Shown here piece after piece: positions 5,200 to 50,759 of a stretch of DNA of 64,000 nucleotides. Each line of letters starts with the position of its first letter. The stretch's first letter is position 1. This DNA comes from Mobula hypostoma (Eukaryota). The notes beneath the pieces are model-generated. The model saw only the letters and a program-made list of their open reading frames with translations. It searched no databases and had not been told where the DNA came from. Position numbers and translations under genes: made by a program. Location of the stretch: assembly GCF_963921235.1 (NCBI RefSeq), contig NC_086097.1:97528001-97592000 (forward strand), in the 5' to 3' direction.

Positions 5200-5640
5200 T
5201 TTACAGCACTCAGGCGATGTAATTCGGGAGGGTGAACTGCGGAGCGGGGTTGCTAACAGGGGAGACAGTGCGGACAAACTGAAGCCCAAGCCGGGAGGTG
5301 GGAGCCCCTCAGCCGCCCGAAACTCCGCCCGGTCGGTGCAATGCGCCACGGCCACGTCGGCAGCGCCCTCTGGCCGCCGGAAGACCGAGGTGTGCCCACC
5401 AGCCGGAGGCGGAAGTGACGGCGCGCTATGTGACTGAGAGGTGGCTGCCGTGCGCTGTGGGCAGTGATGATGTCTGGCCCAGCTGGAGGGTCCAGTTGGA
5501 TTTACGTTCTACTGCTCGGCGCTTTCCGAGTCGGTATCGCCGCCGAGGTGTCAAAATGGAGTATATCTGTTACCGAGGTAGGGCAGCGAGACGTCGGAGA
5601 ACCTGCGCAAGATACGGGAGAGGCAGGGACAGACGCTTGG
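5200..5640 (+). promoter_or_regulatory. CpG-rich TATA-less promoter / first-exon region of TMEM87A
   Basis: Locally CpG-dense; GC box CTCCGCCC near 5322, ETS core CCGGAAG near 5377, ETS-CRE composite CGGAAGTGACG at 5410-5420, all just upstream of ATG 5467. Confidence 0.75.
5467..5577 (+). CDS. TMEM87A: TMEM87A exon 1 (signal peptide; MMSGPAGGSSWIYVLLLGAFRVGIAAEVSKWSISVTE)
   Basis: ATG in CpG island, hydrophobic leader, SKW motif as in mammalian TMEM87A (DRSKWHI), donor GAG|gtaggg, phase 0. Confidence 0.85.
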
Positions 5641-44400: not shown

Positions 44401-45445
44401 CTTGCTGAGTATATCCAATGTGAAATGTAACCACCAGAGTACAAAGGAGGCTGATGTTCCCTATGTTCAAACCAGACTAAGGGGCCAAATACCCTATCCT
44501 TACTTCCACTTCGTTATGTTGTTAAAGATGGTAGTATGCTTAAGGGAAGAGAGGGAATAGAAACTGCTGTCTGCAAGGAAACTAGTAGAGAATGTAACTC
44601 ACTGTGCAAACTTAATATTTCAGGAACACAGTTCTCTGATTACTAAAATGTTTAATTTTGTTCTCTTCCAAAAACTTTTTGTCAGAGTTGAGGACTACCC
44701 TAGGGTTAGCAGGTACTAGGGCAGGCTTGACTCCATGCTGCCTCCCAGGACCCTGGGTTATTACTGCTTCCCTCTGCTATCCCCAAGTCTGATTTTAGCA
44801 CATTGCTCAAAGGGGGAGGGCAAGATTAGGCAATGCTGCCACCTCTGGAGCGAGGAGGTATATGGAGGGAATTGCAGAGATTAGATAGCTGATGAATGTC
44901 TGTCTCAGATATAGTTAGAACACGGAACAGTACAACACAGGAATAGGCCTTTCAGTCTATAATGTAATGTCTGTGCTGAGCATGATGCTAAATTAAACTA
45001 AATTTCTTTTGCTTGTACATAATTACAAATATTCCTCAATTCCCTACATGTTCCTGCATATTTCCAGCCTTTTAAATGTCACCAAAGTATCTGCTTCCAC
45101 CATTCTCTCCCCCCTCCCTCCCACCCCCAAAGCAAGCCATTGCAGGCACCTACCCATTTTCTTTATAAACAAAAACACCTTGCTCTACGCACCTCCATTA
45201 AATTTCTGCCTCTAATTGCTGGAGGAAGCCCACTTCATAGAGGTTCATTGGATTAGGGAAGATGATGTATTTGAAACCAGGGTAATTCTTTGACAGAGTG
45301 GGGCTATTGAATCCTGGTATAAGTTCATCGGTACTTCATGTTTCTGTAGGCACTCATGACTTTATTCAGCAATGTTTTAAGATTTTTGTGGCGCTCTTTG
45401 GTCTGCATAACAAATCACATAACTGTAACCTCTTCTTTGTTCTAG

Positions 45446-45539
45446 GCCTCGTTTGGGAGCTATGCTGCACAGGGTCATTGGTGTCGGCATCCTGTATTTA
45501 ATTTTCTCAGCAATAGAAGGCAATCTTCGAGTTACTGAA
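45446..45539 (+). CDS. TMEM87A: TMEM87A exon 11 ([31 protein letters not shown])
   Basis: ttctag| ... GAA|gtaagt (U2 donor), 94 nt, ends in phase 0. Confidence 0.95.
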
Positions 45540-46059
45540 GTAAGTAGCAGAAGTTCAAGGAGCTAGCCCATTGAGAGAAGATACCACAGGTTCTGCTGAA
45601 GTGTGTTAAACTATTTTCCTTATCCAAAAGAACAATCATTGATTTAATTTTTCAGTGTTCTTGGTTACTCTTGTCTGTGTGATAACTTCATTATTACTGT
45701 TGTTAGGCCCTCTGAGCCAATTGCTCAGTTTTCTCTCAGACGTTGCTAAATCAGAGATTACTAAGCAATGTCCTCACCAGGCACTATGCTGTGTGTGTTC
45801 TTTTAATATTTGCAGCATTGCACTTGCTGTGCAAATCAAACATCTGGGTGATTGGGGTTTTTTAAGTCAATTTTGCCCTCAGTTGCTTTATTAGTAACCC
45901 GTATGATGTGATGTAGGATGGCAACCATAGAGACATATAGAATGGAAACAAGCTGTTCAGCATACCAAGTACACGTTGACCAGCAGCCACCCACTTACAG
46001 TAATCCTCCATCATGATAGTTCAAAGATTTGGATAAGGGTATTGATAGGAGCGACAGAT

Positions 46060-46676
46060 CATAAACACAAGATTCTGCTGATACTGAAAATCCAGAGCAA
46101 CACACACAAAATGCTGGAGGGGCTCAGCAGGTCAGGCAGCATCCGTGAAGATGAATAAACAGTCAACGTTTCGGGTCGAGACCCTTCCTCGGGGCTGGAA
46201 AGAAAGGGGGAAGACATCAGAATAAAAAGGTGGGGGGAGAAGAGGGATAGTTAGACGGTGATTGGTGAAACCAGGCGCATGGGAATGTAACAAAACAGGG
46301 CGGGTTTTAGTTAAACTGAGAAAGAGTAGAGGTGAAGTGTACCTACCAACATGGAATGATAGACCCAAAGGCCAGTTTGTCATGTTTTGACCAGCAATAT
46401 AGTGTTCAGTAGATCCCTGATGGTGAAGATTCGACATTCATTCCACTACAGCTTATCTTTCCCAGCCACCTGGCTTCACCTATCGCCTTCTAACTGTACT
46501 CCGTCCCTCCTCTTCTCCCCCCCCCCCCACTCCACCGCACCTTTTTAATCTGATGTCTCTTCCACCCCTTCCTTTCCAATCCTAATGAAGGGTCTCAGCT
46601 TGAAACGTTGACTGTTTATTCATCCCCATAGATGCTGCCTTACCTGCTGAGTTCCTCCAGCATTTTGTGTGTGTTG
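46060..46676. mobile_element. Inverted Penelope pLTR pair enclosing a captured copy of local intron sequence
   Basis: Minus-strand pLTR at about 46060-46280, plus-strand pLTR at about 46450-46676, both with mutated hammerhead cores; the middle (46289-46446) is the reverse complement of 47325-47482. Confidence 0.8.
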
Positions 46677-47282
46677 GTTAGGAGAGATTTAGATGGACAT
46701 GGTCCAAACGTGACCAAATGGGGTAGGTTGGGAAGGGTAACTTGGGCCAAAAGGCCTGTTCCCATGTTGTATTATTCTGACTCTGTATTAATCTAATTTT
46801 TTAAATCTATCTACGTTCTCATCAGTCCCTTTCCACCCCCTCTCCTATAGATTCTATACGATAGGAAAATTTAAGCGGCCAAATGATGAACCAACCCACA
46901 TTTTTAAGATGTGGGAATAAACTAAAGAAACCAGCTGAAACCCGATCAGTCAGAAGCACACAGACAACACTGGAGGTCAAGAATGAACCTGGGTCTCTGG
47001 TGCTAAGAGGTTTTGGCTCTCCCAGCTGTGCCACTGTGACAGAAGGAAAACAGGGTCCTCACCAACCCATTTACACTCATCCCAATTTCTGTTTTTACTC
47101 TTGTCTATATTCCCACCCTGGTGATTCTGCAACTCTCACACTAGGGGCAAATTACAGCAGTCAGTTAACCTACCAGCTTGTGCCTTTGCAACACAGGAAG
47201 AAACTGGTGCATCAGGGGGATACCTGTGGAGTCACTCACAGTGTATACAAGCTGTGCCCTGAACTTTAGCAAGCGCTCATGT

Positions 47283-47333
47283 TTCCCTGACTGAGAATCA
47301 AACACGAGCTGCAGTGGTGAGGATGTGGAATAA
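47283..47333 (-). pseudogene. Decayed tRNA-Glu-like 3' half (or tRNA-derived SINE head)
   Basis: Minus strand ATTCCACATCCTCACCACTGCAGCTCGTGTTTGATTCTCAGTCAGGGAA resembles the vertebrate tRNA-Glu(CTC) 3' portion. Confidence 0.5.
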
Positions 47334-47492
47334 GTGTTGCATCCTCACCATCAGCGATCTACTGAACACTTTATTGCTGGTCAAAAAATGACAAACTGGC
47401 CTTTGGGTCCATCATTCCATGTTGGTAGGTACACTTCACTTCTAATCTTTCTCAGTTTAACTAAAATTGGCCCTGTTTTGTTCCTGATTTAG

Positions 47493-47564
47493 GCCCCACT
47501 TGTTACCTTGGCTCTTATAGGGAACATCAGCCTTTCAATCATCGACTCATGTATACTCTGGTGG
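47493..47564 (+). CDS. TMEM87A: TMEM87A alternative exon 12a (APLVTLALIGNISLSIIDSCILWW)
   Basis: tttag| acceptor, 72 nt open hydrophobic frame homologous to exon 12b, followed by U12 donor ATATCCTTT at 47565-47573. Confidence 0.85.
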
Positions 47565-48871
47565 ATATCCTTTATATTATACTCAAATATATTGGCTTTT
47601 CTTTTTGTTACATTGATTCTTCTCTTTAAACCCAGTTGTGATTTGCACCCACATGGGAGAAAATCGGTGCTATTGAGTTCTGTTGTTCTTATCCATTTAT
47701 TTTCTATTTGCAATTGGCTGCTAATTAAAGCAGTGAATAGCTGCAGTAAATAAACTGGAAAGACCTAAATTGGATTATTAGTTAATCTAATTGTGGTAGG
47801 ATTTTTAGAATAGGTTTTAGTGCTAGAAGGTTTGAAAATGTTTGAGTTCTGATCCTTATTTGATTTGTTGGGGTACGTGATCAGGTTCTCTTGAGTTTCT
47901 TTCCACGGCTGAATCTTGCCTCATTTACCACATGAATCCTAAACACTTGGATGAGGCAGCAGAAGCCAATTACATCTGTAGAACCATTATCCTGCTAGCT
48001 TCAGGAGAAACATGGAAGCATGTTACGAAGCTGAATGAAGCACTTGAATCTCAAATCACTGTAGATGACGGAAACCTAAAAGAGTCAACATTTTGGAAGG
48101 GGAAAGTTTGTCAGAAATGGAAAGGAGAAAATGCAGGGTAGTTTCAAGATTGACAGAGATAGGACAAAAGGAATATTCTGATGCAATGAGTGATTGAAAT
48201 TAGAGCTATAAGGCATTTCGTCTTGAGGAAGAAAGCTCGGATTGTTGCAGCAGGGTGCGGGTTAGACATTTGCTGTCAGTGGCTGTCGAATTATGAATTC
48301 TGCCAATAAAGGATGGAAAGTCTGATGGAAGCTACAAAGCTCTTGACTAACTGCTTATTTTCTGGAATGCTGGTGGAAAATAAATGAAAGACGTTGACAA
48401 ATCCTGATCTTTAATACACTTGAGAGCAGAAACAAAATGGGTACAGTTTCTGCTGACTGGTGAGTTGGTATCTGCCATATAAACAGCTGTTGAATCTGTG
48501 ATTCCATGGGCTGGCTTTCTGATTCTGATTCTAAATGGATGTTGGCCATATTCAACGGAACACGGTTTCCATTGCGGAGTAGTCTGTGTTATGTGATGTT
48601 CGCTTTGCTGCCTGTGAGAATCATGATTTAAAATCAATTTTAATTACTTCAACCCAAATTGTCCATCACCAGTAAAATAGAAACACTTGGATGTCAATGC
48701 GTTGAAGTTAATTGTAGACCCAAGCTAATACAATGATTCTCACAGTTCAGTCAACACATCCCACTGCTGCTTCATTATGAATTCCTAATGAAACTGGAAG
48801 TCATTATTTTCTTTCTCTCTCTTTCTTTCTTTCTCTATTTCACCTGATGCTATCCTTTCCTTCTTTTTCAG

Positions 48872-48940
48872 GAGAATTTCGACCTGGCCCTTCTGGCTTT
48901 TATCCCTCTGGCTGTTCTCGACACTGCTCTCTGCTGGTGG
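48872..48940 (+). CDS. TMEM87A: TMEM87A alternative exon 12b (ENFDLALLAFIPLAVLDTALCWW)
   Basis: ttctttttcag| acceptor, 69 nt, matches human AQTDLASLAFIPLAFLDTALCWW; U12 donor ATATCCTTT at 48941-48949. Confidence 0.95.
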
Positions 48941-50315
48941 ATATCCTTTCGGGATCTGTTTTTTTTCCAGCAAAAAGGATTTTCTGACCTGTTTTCTATT
49001 TATTCCTTGATCAAGAATGGAATATTTTGACAAAATCTGCTTTCTAAGCATATAGTTTATAAACCCTTGGATTTAATCTTTCCCTTTTTTTTGTTTTGGA
49101 AGTGGCTATGAAATTGGGGTTAATCCATCCGAATTTGGGTTTAGTAGTAGAATAGTTTCACAAGTGTACTTAACAAAAGATCTAGTTTGTATATGTGGTT
49201 TGAGAAGGATTTGGCAAAATGATTACGTTCTCAGTCACAACTCTGGAGTATCACAACCCAACCCAACCATGGCAAATAATCCAGGCTTTAAGCCTGAGGG
49301 CATAAATTTTGTAATGTCCAACACTAATCTAATGCATGTAGATGATTTCAGTTAGCCTAATTGGACAAGTTACAGAGACCTTGCCATACTTCAGCAACCA
49401 TGTTCACTGAGTGAAGTCAGCTTTTGCAAGAATCTGTTCAGCATTGAGCGGGGAACAATGTCATTTGGGAGATGAATGCACCGTACATACAGTAGATGTG
49501 ATGGTGTTTAGCAGTCACTATCACGACCTGAAATTTGGGAATTGGTTTATTGTTGTCACATGTATTAAGGTACAGTGAAAAGGTTGTACAGATCAAATCA
49601 TTACACAGTGCATTGAGGTAAAACAATAGCACATTGCAGAATAACATGCAATAGCTGCCTAGAAAGTGCTGTGCAGTGAGATGAGAAGGTGCAAGACCAT
49701 AATAAGATAGACTGTGAGGTCAAGAATCCATCTTGTCTTACTAGAGAACTATTCGATAGTCTTACAATACCAGCATAGAAGTTGTCCTTGAGCCTGGTGG
49801 TACATGCTTTCAAGCTTTTATATGTTCTGCCTGATAGGATGCGGGGGGGTGGGGGGGGAGGCGGGATGGTGGAGAAGAGAGAATGTCTGGGGTGAGTGGA
49901 GTCTTTGATTATGCTGGCTTCCTTACAGAGGCAGCGAGGAGTGTCGCTTATGGTTCCTGTGATGTGCTGAGTTGTATCTGCAACTCAGTGCAATTTCTTC
50001 ACAGGTAGAGCAATTACCATGCCAAGCCCTGATGCATCTGGATAGGATGCTTTCTATGGTCCATTGACAAAAATTGGTAAGGATCAACGAGGATTTGCTG
50101 AATTTCTTTATCCTCCTGAGGATCTAGAGGCTTTGGTAGGCTTTCATGACTCTGGACAGTTTTTGTTTGGAAATCAAGTTGAGCAAGGTGATGCACAATT
50201 GCTGTTGTACTGTTCTTTAACCTTAGACCTGATTTATATCTCTGAATTTATTTCCATGTGTGACACACTTGATGCTCCATTTTATGTTCCATCTGTTTTC
50301 TTTAACCATTGACAC
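48941..50315 (+). other. U12-type (minor spliceosome) AT-AC intron; 47565-50315 when exon 12a is used
   Basis: 5' ATATCCTTT; branch site TTCTTTAAC at 50298-50306 (one mismatch to TTCCTTAAC); terminal AC at 50314-50315; joining restores [13 protein letters not shown]. Confidence 0.93.
49530..50150 (-). mobile_element. Old Rex1/L2-like LINE 3' remnant
   Basis: KACTTRLKDNFY motif and degenerate RT C-terminal sequence. Confidence 0.55.
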
Positions 50316-50424
50316 ATTTTTATCAGCTTGACCCAAACAATGAAGATGTTAAAACTGAGAAGGAATGTTGTGAAGCTGTCCTTATACAGACATTTCACGA
50401 ACACACTTATCTTCGCTGTCATAG
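50316..50424 (+). CDS. TMEM87A: TMEM87A exon 13 ([36 protein letters not shown])
   Basis: Near-identical to human; AC acceptor, G|gtaagt donor, 109 nt. Confidence 0.95.
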
Positions 50425-50759
50425 GTAAGTTTAAAAATTGCTCATGCTTGGTGTTTCTGGGTGGCCTAACTACACACTATCGAACCACTAAATCTCTCAT
50501 TTTAGGGTATCTCCGGCATGGACTGACTAGTTGAATAGAAAGAGCTACACCAGTGAAACATAGGTTATGTCAGTCGAGGTATCAAGACTTGGCTGCCAGT
50601 TGTGAGGGCAAGGGCAATTTGCTCACTGATGGGACAGTTCTAGGGCATTTGCAAGTAGGAAGAAAAAGATGCAATTGCAAGTTAGCTGAGAAGGTTAGGA
50701 AGTTTTGGGGTCAGGTTTAAGAAGCTTAAAGATAGATGAACATGGCAAGTAAAATATAT

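Follow-up and report, generated by a model that had tools for sequence, protein, structure and literature searches.

The TMEM87A gene of the ray Mobula hypostoma carries two tandem homologous exons, 12a and 12b, that are very probably spliced on an either-or basis through mixed U2- and U12-type sites. The donor of exon 11 is of the major (U2) type; exons 12a and 12b each have a major-type acceptor in front and a minor-type (U12, AT-AC) donor behind; and the sole minor-type branch site and AC acceptor precede exon 13. As a major donor would not pair with a minor acceptor, exon 11 could not skip both alternatives, and as a minor donor would not pair with a major acceptor, 12a could not be joined to 12b. 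Given this incompatibility between the sites of the two spliceosomes, each mature mRNA should hold exactly one of 12a and 12b, and spliceosome incompatibility would be the enforcer of exclusivity. The lock matters because double inclusion (141 nt) or double skipping would stay in frame and escape nonsense-mediated decay.

The TMEM87A locus and its splice sites

The window, i.e., the whole 64-kb stretch of DNA analysed, was searched by tblastn with skate TMEM87A. The exons could be mapped one by one from position 5467 to 61883 on the plus strand, with per-exon identities of up to 100%. With the Pristis orthologue as query, four solved human TMEM87A sequences of the Protein Data Bank are matched at an E value of about 1e-195, and the Pfam families precomputed for the relatives are PF06814 and PF21901. 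The other two TMEM87 paralogues are found on contigs C2 and C40 in a whole-genome protein search. Judged by homology, the locus is a TMEM87A orthologue (a GOLD-domain seven-transmembrane protein of the GOST family), nearer A than the other paralogues.

All features described below are on the plus strand. Exon 11 (45446-45539) is constitutive, encodes the end of TM4, ends in ACTGAA and translates into a sequence with 85% tblastn identity to skate TMEM87A. Its last codon, GAA, is followed by a U2-type donor, gtaagt (45540-45545). The U2-type acceptor region of exon 12a (47433-47492) has a tttaac branch-like word, a moderate pyrimidine tract and an AG (...tgatttag). Exon 12a (47493-47564; 72 nt, 24 codons) is the alternative exon of the a type and encodes the TM4-TM5 loop together with the luminal half of TM5. 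Its last bases are CTCTGGTGG, followed by the U12-type AT-AC donor ATATCCTTT at 47565-47573, and its peptide, APLVTLALIGNISLSIIDSCILWW, is free of proline, as had been read from the DNA at the outset for the helix. Exon 12b (48872-48940; 69 nt, 23 codons), the alternative exon of the b type, is seen in the sequence, in its translation and in an RNA contig. It lies behind a U2-type acceptor (48801-48871) that consists of a long pyrimidine tract and CAG, and its last bases, TGCTGGTGG, are followed by the same U12-type AT-AC donor, ATATCCTTT, at 48941-48949. The peptide, ENFDLALLAFIPLAVLDTALCWW, displays an IPLAVLD motif. The two exons are tandem homologues, both beginning and finishing on codon boundaries; in a manual alignment their peptides have 8 identical residues, and both end in D-x-x-x-x-WW. 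The coordinates, lengths, homology and splice motifs given for the pair by the sequence-only reading are right to the base.

Exon 13 (50316-50424), which is constitutive, has 97% tblastn identity to skate TMEM87A, encodes the cytosolic half of TM5 and the start of TM6, and is followed by a gtaag donor. The region immediately in front of it (50299-50315) holds the U12 branch site TCTTTAAC at 50299-50306 and the AC acceptor at 50314-50315, detected by inspection of the sequence and a motif scan. TCTTTAAC has one mismatch to the consensus TCCTTAAC, with 9 nt between the end of the motif and the end of the intron. It is the only correctly placed U12 branch word, and the AC acceptor there is likewise single, as had been claimed. 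The last 200 nt of the intron that precedes 12a hold no U12 branch word, and none lies near the 12b acceptor; the nearest TCCTTRAC-like word (at most 1 mismatch) lies 201 nt before the 12a acceptor. The interval between 12a and 12b, which runs for 1307 nt from AT to AG, had been described as without a branch site near its end, and the nearest word of this type, under the same threshold, is indeed 927 nt from that end.

With both strands of the 64-kb window counted, there are 7 copies of the word ATATCCTT vs 2.98 expected, a number that is equalled in 3 of 100 shuffles. The count by itself is not significant. The placement is beyond chance: of the three plus-strand matches, two coincide with the in-frame ends of the two homologous exons. 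The Mobula hypostoma genome repeats this layout of exons and splice sites in two paralogous genes.

RNA contigs and the choice between 12a and 12b

Logan contigs of four public runs (X1, X2, X6 and X7) were used as RNA evidence; the exons are covered in X1, X2 and X7 and not in X6. The runs are presumed to be RNA, and their cDNA content rests on the exact intron-free joints. Spliced contigs in these three runs read either 11-12a-13 or 11-12b-13, with exact AT..AC joints. As examples, one 124-nt contig (29 + 72 + 23) consists of exon 11, 12a and exon 13, and one 121-nt contig of exon 11, 12b and exon 13. The joint from 47564 to 50316 has depths of 86.3 (X1), 143.7 (X2) and 40.1 (X7), and the joint from 48940 to 50316 has depths of 88, 62 and 104.5, respectively. 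For X2 and X7 the listed joints include those of exon 11 with 47493 and with 48874; neither is among the joints listed for X1. Exons 12a and 12b are both used in RNA, and the expectations that 12a would be included and that a transcript would use exactly one of the pair agree with these contigs. Neither a 12a-12b joint nor an 11-13 joint is found among the 15 joints listed of 193; contigs drop rare variants, so rare products are possible. As for processed retrocopies, which would mimic spliced joints, the whole-genome protein search gave only three multi-exon loci, in a strict first pass from which weak matches may escape.

Exon 12a could be thought a decaying or noise-level pseudo-exon, with functional protein coming from 12b alone. 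Exon 12b is the form that invertebrates share and is far better conserved, with 23 of 23 residues the same in this ray and in sharks and a score of 82 against amphioxus; the b form is the only one among the four solved TMEM87A sequences of the searched Protein Data Bank copy; and the 12a acceptor is the weaker of the two, with a pyrimidine content at -43 to -4 of 65% vs 85% for 12b. However, the 12a frame is open over all 24 codons, with 96% identity to the Pristis exon, and a-type exons are found in sharks, teleosts, frogs, lizards, birds, mammals and lampreys. In addition, of the three runs with cover, X1 and X2 have 12a contigs about as deep as, or deeper than, those of 12b. The pseudo-exon explanation is already contradicted by the present data and hardly deserves credence.

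The depth ratio of 12a to 12b is about 1:1 in X1, 2.3:1 in X2 and 1:2.6 in X7, although contig mean depths are a poor measure of such ratios. X2 and X7 are runs of the same organism and study, and the difference between them is a point in favour of a second explanation, in which exclusivity comes mainly from regulated competition (exon-definition factors, RNA structure) and the U12 donors were merely inherited with the duplicated exon. In the portion of their review that deals with TMEM87, Akinyi and Frilander (PMC8329584) likewise describe a competition of the U2 acceptor of the distal exon with the U12 donor of the proximal exon, the tissue factors being given as unknown, and in the ray a unique 158-nt inverted repeat adjoins the 12a acceptor. 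Regulation can pick the exon, but it leaves unexplained why a product with both, or with neither, is never seen. Since double inclusion and double skipping would be in frame, no decay filter would hide such products. All three paralogues also retain these types of donor and acceptor, a pattern consistent with selection for the lock. Regulated competition as the main source of exclusivity is accordingly judged improbable. Under the U2/U12 lock, the choice of 12a or 12b may still be regulated by tissue, and minor spliceosome diseases would be expected to hit both forms of all TMEM87 genes.

The inverted duplication has arms at 46289-46446 and 47325-47482 that are 91% complementary. The right arm stops 10 nt short of the 12a acceptor AG, with the likely branch region inside it. 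In a search of the 3.48-Gb genome the two arms were the only matches, and no comparable inverted repeat was found next to the a exon of either paralogue. Should a duplex form in the pre-mRNA, it could mask the 12a acceptor or, by looping out about 1.2 kb, draw exon 11 towards 12a. There is a slim chance that the ray tunes the 12a/12b choice by such a locus-specific RNA duplex, on top of the inherited U12 lock. Contig depth in the bin 47259-47427, which overlaps the right arm, is 0 in all four runs.

Conservation and age of the exon pair

Annotated TMEM87A genes with the two exon types exist in sharks, skates, frogs, lizards and birds, and the a type is annotated in mammals too. The a-type exon is present in all of the best 120 of 803 protein matches, and both types occur inside 7 of the 9 vertebrate TMEM87A clusters examined. 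A further 110 of 111 matches are of the a type (the remaining one is without the anchor); these are mostly from mammals, with birds, reptiles and amphibians also represented, and include the curated mouse isoform 1. A protein query for the a exon, consisting of the window's reading over 40 codons from 47493 (the exon and 16 intron codons), matched two batoid proteins only. The lamprey TMEM87 isoforms, which form one gene cluster, comprise 12 of the a type and 3 of the b type; for most of these 15, the automatic NCBI name of the gene switches between 87B-like and 87A-like with the exon that is included. Deep conservation had been put forward as the new point of the sequence-only reading in case the arrangement was already reported. 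The conservation is real, but it is directly visible in public annotation.

The ray has the a-then-b order with the U12 lock in each of its three TMEM87 paralogues, every one of them with an a and a b copy of its own. In the two other paralogues a U2 donor is followed by AG, the a exon and ATATCC, then by AG, the b exon and ATATCC, then by TCCTTAAC or TTCCTTGAC, and finally by AC. The b copy of the ray TMEM87B is a remnant that has two in-frame stops, both TGA.

Exon 12a had also been described as TMEM87B-like. This is correct in that 12a is an a-type exon and the reference TMEM87B isoform uses that type, but it is not a likeness to the B gene, each paralogue having both a and b. Gene conversion, or a closer kinship of 12a to B, was considered and rejected, as the likeness is one of exon type and not of gene. 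In comparisons with the ray A-a exon, the scores are 46 for ray B-a, 59 for ray C-a and 47 for ray A-b.

Outside vertebrates the a type was not found: among the 121 of 150 listed representatives that have an exon-13 anchor, non-vertebrates are of the b type or too diverged to call. In invertebrates, for 21 of the 22 members of the 10 clusters examined, all 21 are of the b type, which is a weak negative, the protein models having their isoforms collapsed. Because the lock is present in all three paralogues and both exon types are present in lampreys, the design is probably older than the vertebrate genome duplications. Sequence comparison moderately favours an origin of the a exon and the lock in the vertebrate stem, before the duplications that gave the three paralogues, with the b exon as the ancestral metazoan form. 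With an early origin, TMEM87 would count among the older conserved cases in which the minor spliceosome serves as a splicing lock.

Published precedents and the swapped protein segment

It had been cautioned that a similar arrangement might already be reported for mammals, and this is the case (PMC6717393, PMC8329584, PMC5740500, at least in the portions available). The TMEM87 either-or exon pair is already published for the mouse genes, and the window is a further orthologue of a known case. Olthof 2019 (PMC6717393) describes mouse Tmem87b exons 11/11a and Tmem87a, and Akinyi and Frilander 2021 (PMC8329584) review both TMEM87 genes beside MAPK8/9, with a scheme. As described in the relevant portions of these papers, mouse Tmem87a and Tmem87b are like the ray gene in family and in the intron concerned, in alternatives that are never joined to each other, and in tissue-dependent usage. 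Both exons of mouse Tmem87b are 72 bp, whereas the ray gene, an A paralogue from a cartilaginous fish, has one of 72 nt and one of 69 nt. The distal exon is treated as ‘cryptic’ in both papers; in the portions available, neither a homology between it and the proximal exon, nor its age, nor the part of the protein that it encodes is taken up. According to Olthof 2019, Tmem87b is not a Nova2 CLIP target.

The supplement of Hatje 2017 (PMC5740500) contains a human TMEM87B pair as mutually exclusive exon cluster 1748. Like the pair in the ray, it has a proline-free a type (‘annotated constitutive’) and an IPL/LPL b type (‘MXE candidate in intronic region’); the peptides given for the two continue into ISF, a read-through of ATATCC. 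TMEM87A has 0 occurrences in the supplements searched, the pair there being that of TMEM87B, and the main text, in the portion available, gives five cases of U2/U12 incompatibility among 629 clusters. Another precedent is exons 6a/6b of MAPK8/MAPK9 (JNK), from Chang et al. 2007 as described in PMC8329584. There too, two U2 acceptors and two U12 donors are interlocked, with one exon per transcript and a neuron-enriched choice; unlike TMEM87, these are unrelated kinase genes, and the choice is regulated by Nova (PMC8329584). A search for literature on the evolution of the TMEM87 exon pair found nothing beyond Olthof 2019, Akinyi and Frilander 2021 and Hatje 2017. The present analysis adds the lock in three paralogues, the b-only invertebrate models, the placement in TM5, and the stops in the ray TMEM87B b copy.

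With respect to this placement, helix 5 in the AlphaFold model of the Pristis orthologue comprises residues 363-398, and exon a corresponds to residues 360-383. The human b exon maps to A355-W377, and Kang 2024, in the portion available, puts D371, C375 and W376 in TM5 of human TMEM87A. The swapped piece is thus modelled as the TM4-TM5 loop plus the luminal half of TM5, and the original guess of a TM5 swap was right. In human TMEM87A the lateral TM5/TM6 opening is flanked by the swapped segment, which touches a bound phospholipid and includes an aspartate (human D371) and neighbours that hold the phospholipid at that opening. An exchange of the exons may alter the cavity or the lipid gate. The human isoforms tested in the channel study (PMC11239671) include no TM5 variant in the portion available, and the main text of the TMEM87A structure paper (PMC9711517) does not contain ‘isoform’, ‘splice’ or ‘TM5’. 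The a form, which in mouse is the curated isoform 1, may represent a distinct functional state that bears on the dispute over TMEM87A as a channel vs a cargo receptor.

Splice signals around exons 12a and 12b

A tblastn search with the skate TMEM87A protein places collinear exons of TMEM87A on the plus strand from 5467 to 61883, and the gene extends past the window end. The sequence from 45300 to 50600 matches every one of the coordinates and signals that a sequence-only reading had assigned to exons 11 to 13. Exon 11 (45446-45539) ends in ...GTTACTGAA, with the major-type (U2) donor gtaagt directly after it. Exon 12a (47493-47564, 72 nt) follows ...cctgatttag and encodes APLVTLALIGNISLSIIDSCILWW; exon 12b (48872-48940, 69 nt) encodes ENFDLALLAFIPLAVLDTALCWW and has a long pyrimidine tract with cag in front of it. 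Both run into ATATCCTTT. Exon 13 (50316-50424), on the plus strand like the others, is preceded by ...ttttctttaaccattgacAC.

A scan for the U12 branch word TCCTTRAC, with up to one mismatch, located TCTTTAAC 9 nt upstream of the end of the intron before exon 13. No such word is present within 201 nt of the 12a acceptor, or within 927 nt of the 12b acceptor, where the 1307-nt interval between 12a and 12b ends. This interval runs from AT to AG and is a hybrid, as had been proposed. The motif ATATCCTT has only three plus-strand matches in the 64-kb window, and seven on both strands against 2.98 expected (at least seven in 3 of 100 shuffles). The count itself is unremarkable, but the position of two matches exactly at the in-frame ends of 12a and 12b is not.

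All junctions from exon 11 through 12a or 12b to exon 13 fall on codon boundaries, and therefore inclusion of both alternative exons (141 nt) or of neither would preserve the frame. Given the mix of U2 and U12 signals, exon 11 could be linked to exon 13 only through either 12a or 12b. Such a lock would be needed because frame-based quality control would spare both double inclusion and double skipping.

RNA joints and published precedent

Four public sequencing runs, whose "RNA?" label is a guess, were analyzed as Logan contigs over 45400-50450. Exact intron-free joints were found in three of the four, X1 (organism A) and X2 and X7 (organism B), and X6 does not cover the exons of this region. 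The joint 47564 to 50316, with AT..AC ends, has depths of 86.3, 143.7 and 40.1 in X1, X2 and X7. The joint 48940 to 50316, also AT..AC, has depths of 88, 62 and 104.5 in the same order. X2 and X7 also contain exon 11 joints to 47493 and to 48874, with depths equal to those of the downstream joints. Single contigs of 124 nt and 121 nt each carry one alternative exon between exons 11 and 13, the former consisting of 29 nt of exon 11, the 72 nt of 12a and 23 nt of exon 13. Depth is about 0-12 in intron bins outside repeat-rich stretches, compared with 23-162 reached in exon bins. Among the 15 joints listed (of 193), none links 12a to 12b or exon 11 to exon 13, in keeping with the proposal of one exon per transcript, though Logan contigs lose rare variants and rare products of either kind may escape.

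The depth of 12a in these contigs and its conservation contradict the idea of a dead exon; its closest relatives are batoid RefSeq models (Pristis pectinata isoform X2, 96% identity; Amblyraja radiata isoform X1, 88%). The 12a:12b ratio is about 2.3:1 in X2 and 1:2.6 in X7, runs of the same coded organism and study, with contig mean depth being a poor measure; this shift hints at regulated exon choice.

Two differences were seen between the window and organism B transcripts. At 45538 the last codon of exon 11 is GAA (Glu) in the window and GGA (Gly) in the transcripts, and at 48873 the first codon of exon 12b is GAG and GGG, respectively. Exon 11 ends in Gly (RVTG) in the elasmobranch and tetrapod TMEM87A proteins examined, so the window Glu would be a lineage-specific or allelic change.

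The sequence-only reading allowed that the arrangement might already be reported for mammals, and a U2/U12-locked exon pair is indeed already known, published for mouse and human TMEM87 genes. In mouse Tmem87b the minor intron follows exon 11 and contains a "cryptic" exon 11a; these two exons, both 72 bp, are described as never joined together and are termed mutually exclusive, with RT-PCR confirmation, and the 11a form is predominant in cortex (Olthof et al. 2019, PMC6717393). The same paper places Tmem87a among genes with this upstream-exon skipping. Akinyi and Frilander (2021, PMC8329584) group "TMEM87a and TMEM87b" with MAPK8/9, as genes in which interlocked U2/U12 sites make exons mutually exclusive. 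Hatje et al. (2017, PMC5740500) list in their supplement a human TMEM87B cluster that pairs a b-type candidate in an intron with an "annotated constitutive" exon free of proline, and the main text counts five cases of U2/U12 incompatibility among 629 clusters. TMEM87A does not occur in those supplements, which include the human MXE tables. No published account of how the pair evolved came up in a literature search. This analysis adds evidence on the age of the pair, from the three paralogues and from lampreys; it also points to b as the ancestral form and places the swap in the lipid-binding half of TM5.

Paralogues and ancestry of the exon pair

The window's own 3.48-Gb assembly contains two further TMEM87 genes, one TMEM87B-like (contig C2) and one of a third group (contig C40). 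The latter resembles fish zgc:162698 and, judging by the names returned, is not annotated as such in mammals. Both share the window's exon order and signals: a U2 donor after exon 11; AG, a 72-nt a exon, then ATATCCTT(C/T); AG, the b exon, then ATATCCT(T/A); and TCCTTAAC or TTCCTTGAC, a few bases, AC and exon 13. From this identity of order and signals, the a-then-b U2/U12 design appears to predate the separation of the three genes. Exclusivity from regulation alone does not explain the retention of donor and acceptor types in all three. Regulation surely decides which exon is used, and the published U2/U12 explanation is supported as the best one for the TMEM87A pair.

The C40 gene (about 1.057-1.083 Mb; loci L009, L011, L014 and L015 of G000, the window's assembly) has intact a (72 nt) and b (69 nt) exons, and its b exon donor is ATATCCTAC. 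In the C2 gene the a exon is intact (L013, 2487-2558). The b exon (L013, 1390-1461, minus strand) translates as ERKSDFSS*SISPLVLLDIGLYW*, its frame interrupted by two TGA codons, and retains its ...aacag acceptor and ATATCCTTT donor; the exon may be decaying, or it may be a "poison" exon that carries stops.

Annotation across vertebrates includes both exon types. A search with the region of the Pristis isoform around the exon gave 803 matches, and all 120 listed carry the a type (sharks, rays, about 100 teleosts, frogs, Anolis and birds). Of nine 90%-identity clusters examined, seven hold both a and b isoforms (skates, Mustelus, Chiloscyllium, lamnid sharks, a tree frog, Anolis and birds), and only the a type was seen in the Pristis and salmonid clusters. 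The ray b exon is identical to that of Chiloscyllium and lamnid sharks at 23 of 23 residues, and the a exon differs at several positions. When a bird a-type isoform served as the query of a second search, 120 of 141 matches were listed; of the 111 new proteins among these, 110 are a type and one lacks the anchor. The a-type rows listed include echidna, koala, a New World monkey and the curated mouse "isoform 1" of TMEM87A. Human, ape and Old World monkey are not among the 120 a-type TMEM87A rows listed, and the a exon may or may not remain in use in catarrhines.

In lampreys, 15 isoforms from three species form one gene cluster, with 12 of a type (EQNSVNVLYSDIALAFIDSCVIYW) and three of b type (GQEFDLDLLAAIPLAVLDTALCWW). 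The deep conservation that had been suggested thus extends over jawed vertebrates and lampreys, and over three paralogues in the ray. NCBI automatic names of the lamprey a-type forms are mostly "87B-like" and those of b-type forms mostly "87A-like", with exceptions. This explains the earlier impression that 12a resembles TMEM87B; the likeness is present, but it follows exon type.

An exhaustive library search listed 150 representatives, 121 of them with the exon-13 anchor, and the non-vertebrates among these are b type or too diverged to call. In ten invertebrate clusters, 21 of 22 members were examined (including a brachiopod, priapulid, spider, coral, prawns, starfish and four amphioxus models, two of them RefSeq isoforms), and all 21 have an IPLAVLD-type b exon. 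The absence of an a-type exon from these 21 is weak evidence, as isoforms are collapsed in the libraries and the comparison covered protein models. In BLOSUM62 scores the b and invertebrate exons form a tight group (ray b against amphioxus 82, against lamprey b 102), and the a exons are only loosely grouped (46-68). These comparisons are most simply read with b as the ancestral form; a would be a faster-evolving copy from the vertebrate stem.

In Mustelus asterias RefSeq isoforms X2 and X4 (P0314, P0316) the terminal WW of the a and b exons is replaced by CH. This could come from the use of another donor lying a few bases further upstream, or from faulty modelling around the AT-AC intron. Several deposited gene models (P0125, P0139, P0193, P0228 and others) run through the U12 donor, with WW followed by ISF, ISC or ISS and then by intron-derived residues; the electric-eel model P0139 has both exons in tandem. 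Evidently the AT-AC introns of TMEM87 mislead gene predictors.

The swapped segment and the intron before 12a

The AlphaFold model of the Pristis a-type protein (mean pLDDT 74.8; 81-95 around the exon) has seven helices, the fifth at residues 363-398; the exon covers 360-383, which agrees with the proposed swap of TM5. All four TMEM87A sequences in the Protein Data Bank (8HSI, 8CTJ, 8HTT and 8KB4) are b type. In human TMEM87A the b exon aligns to A355-W377, and Kang et al. (2024, PMC11239671) assign D371, C375 and W376 to TM5. In the human protein this stretch lies along the lateral TM5/TM6 opening and touches a bound phospholipid; the same H5/H6 slot is described by Hoel et al. (2022, PMC9711517). 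The choice between a and b thus swaps the lipid-binding half of TM5. The aspartate and final tryptophan are retained in both types; in the a type the IPLA proline is missing, and a polar residue (N, D, E or S) stands a few positions ahead of it. We infer that the swap alters the lateral gate or lipid site. The human isoforms described in Kang et al. (PMC11239671) do not appear to include a TM5 variant.

The intron before 12a holds a 158-nt inverted repeat, 91% complementary, with arms at 46289-46446 and 47325-47482, 878 nt apart. The right arm stops 10 nt upstream of the 12a acceptor AG and spans the likely branch region, and the arms are paired in the minimum-energy fold. Searching the whole genome gave these two arms and nothing else, and the repeat therefore does not resemble a dispersed transposon; no counterpart is present in the C2 and C40 paralogues. 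A second inverted pair (46091-46209 and 46565-46683; 119 nt, 83% complementary) belongs to a very high-copy element. In each of the four runs, contigs of this element climb to depths of tens to hundreds of thousands; the pair is therefore probably two insertions, opposite in orientation, of a SINE-like repeat.
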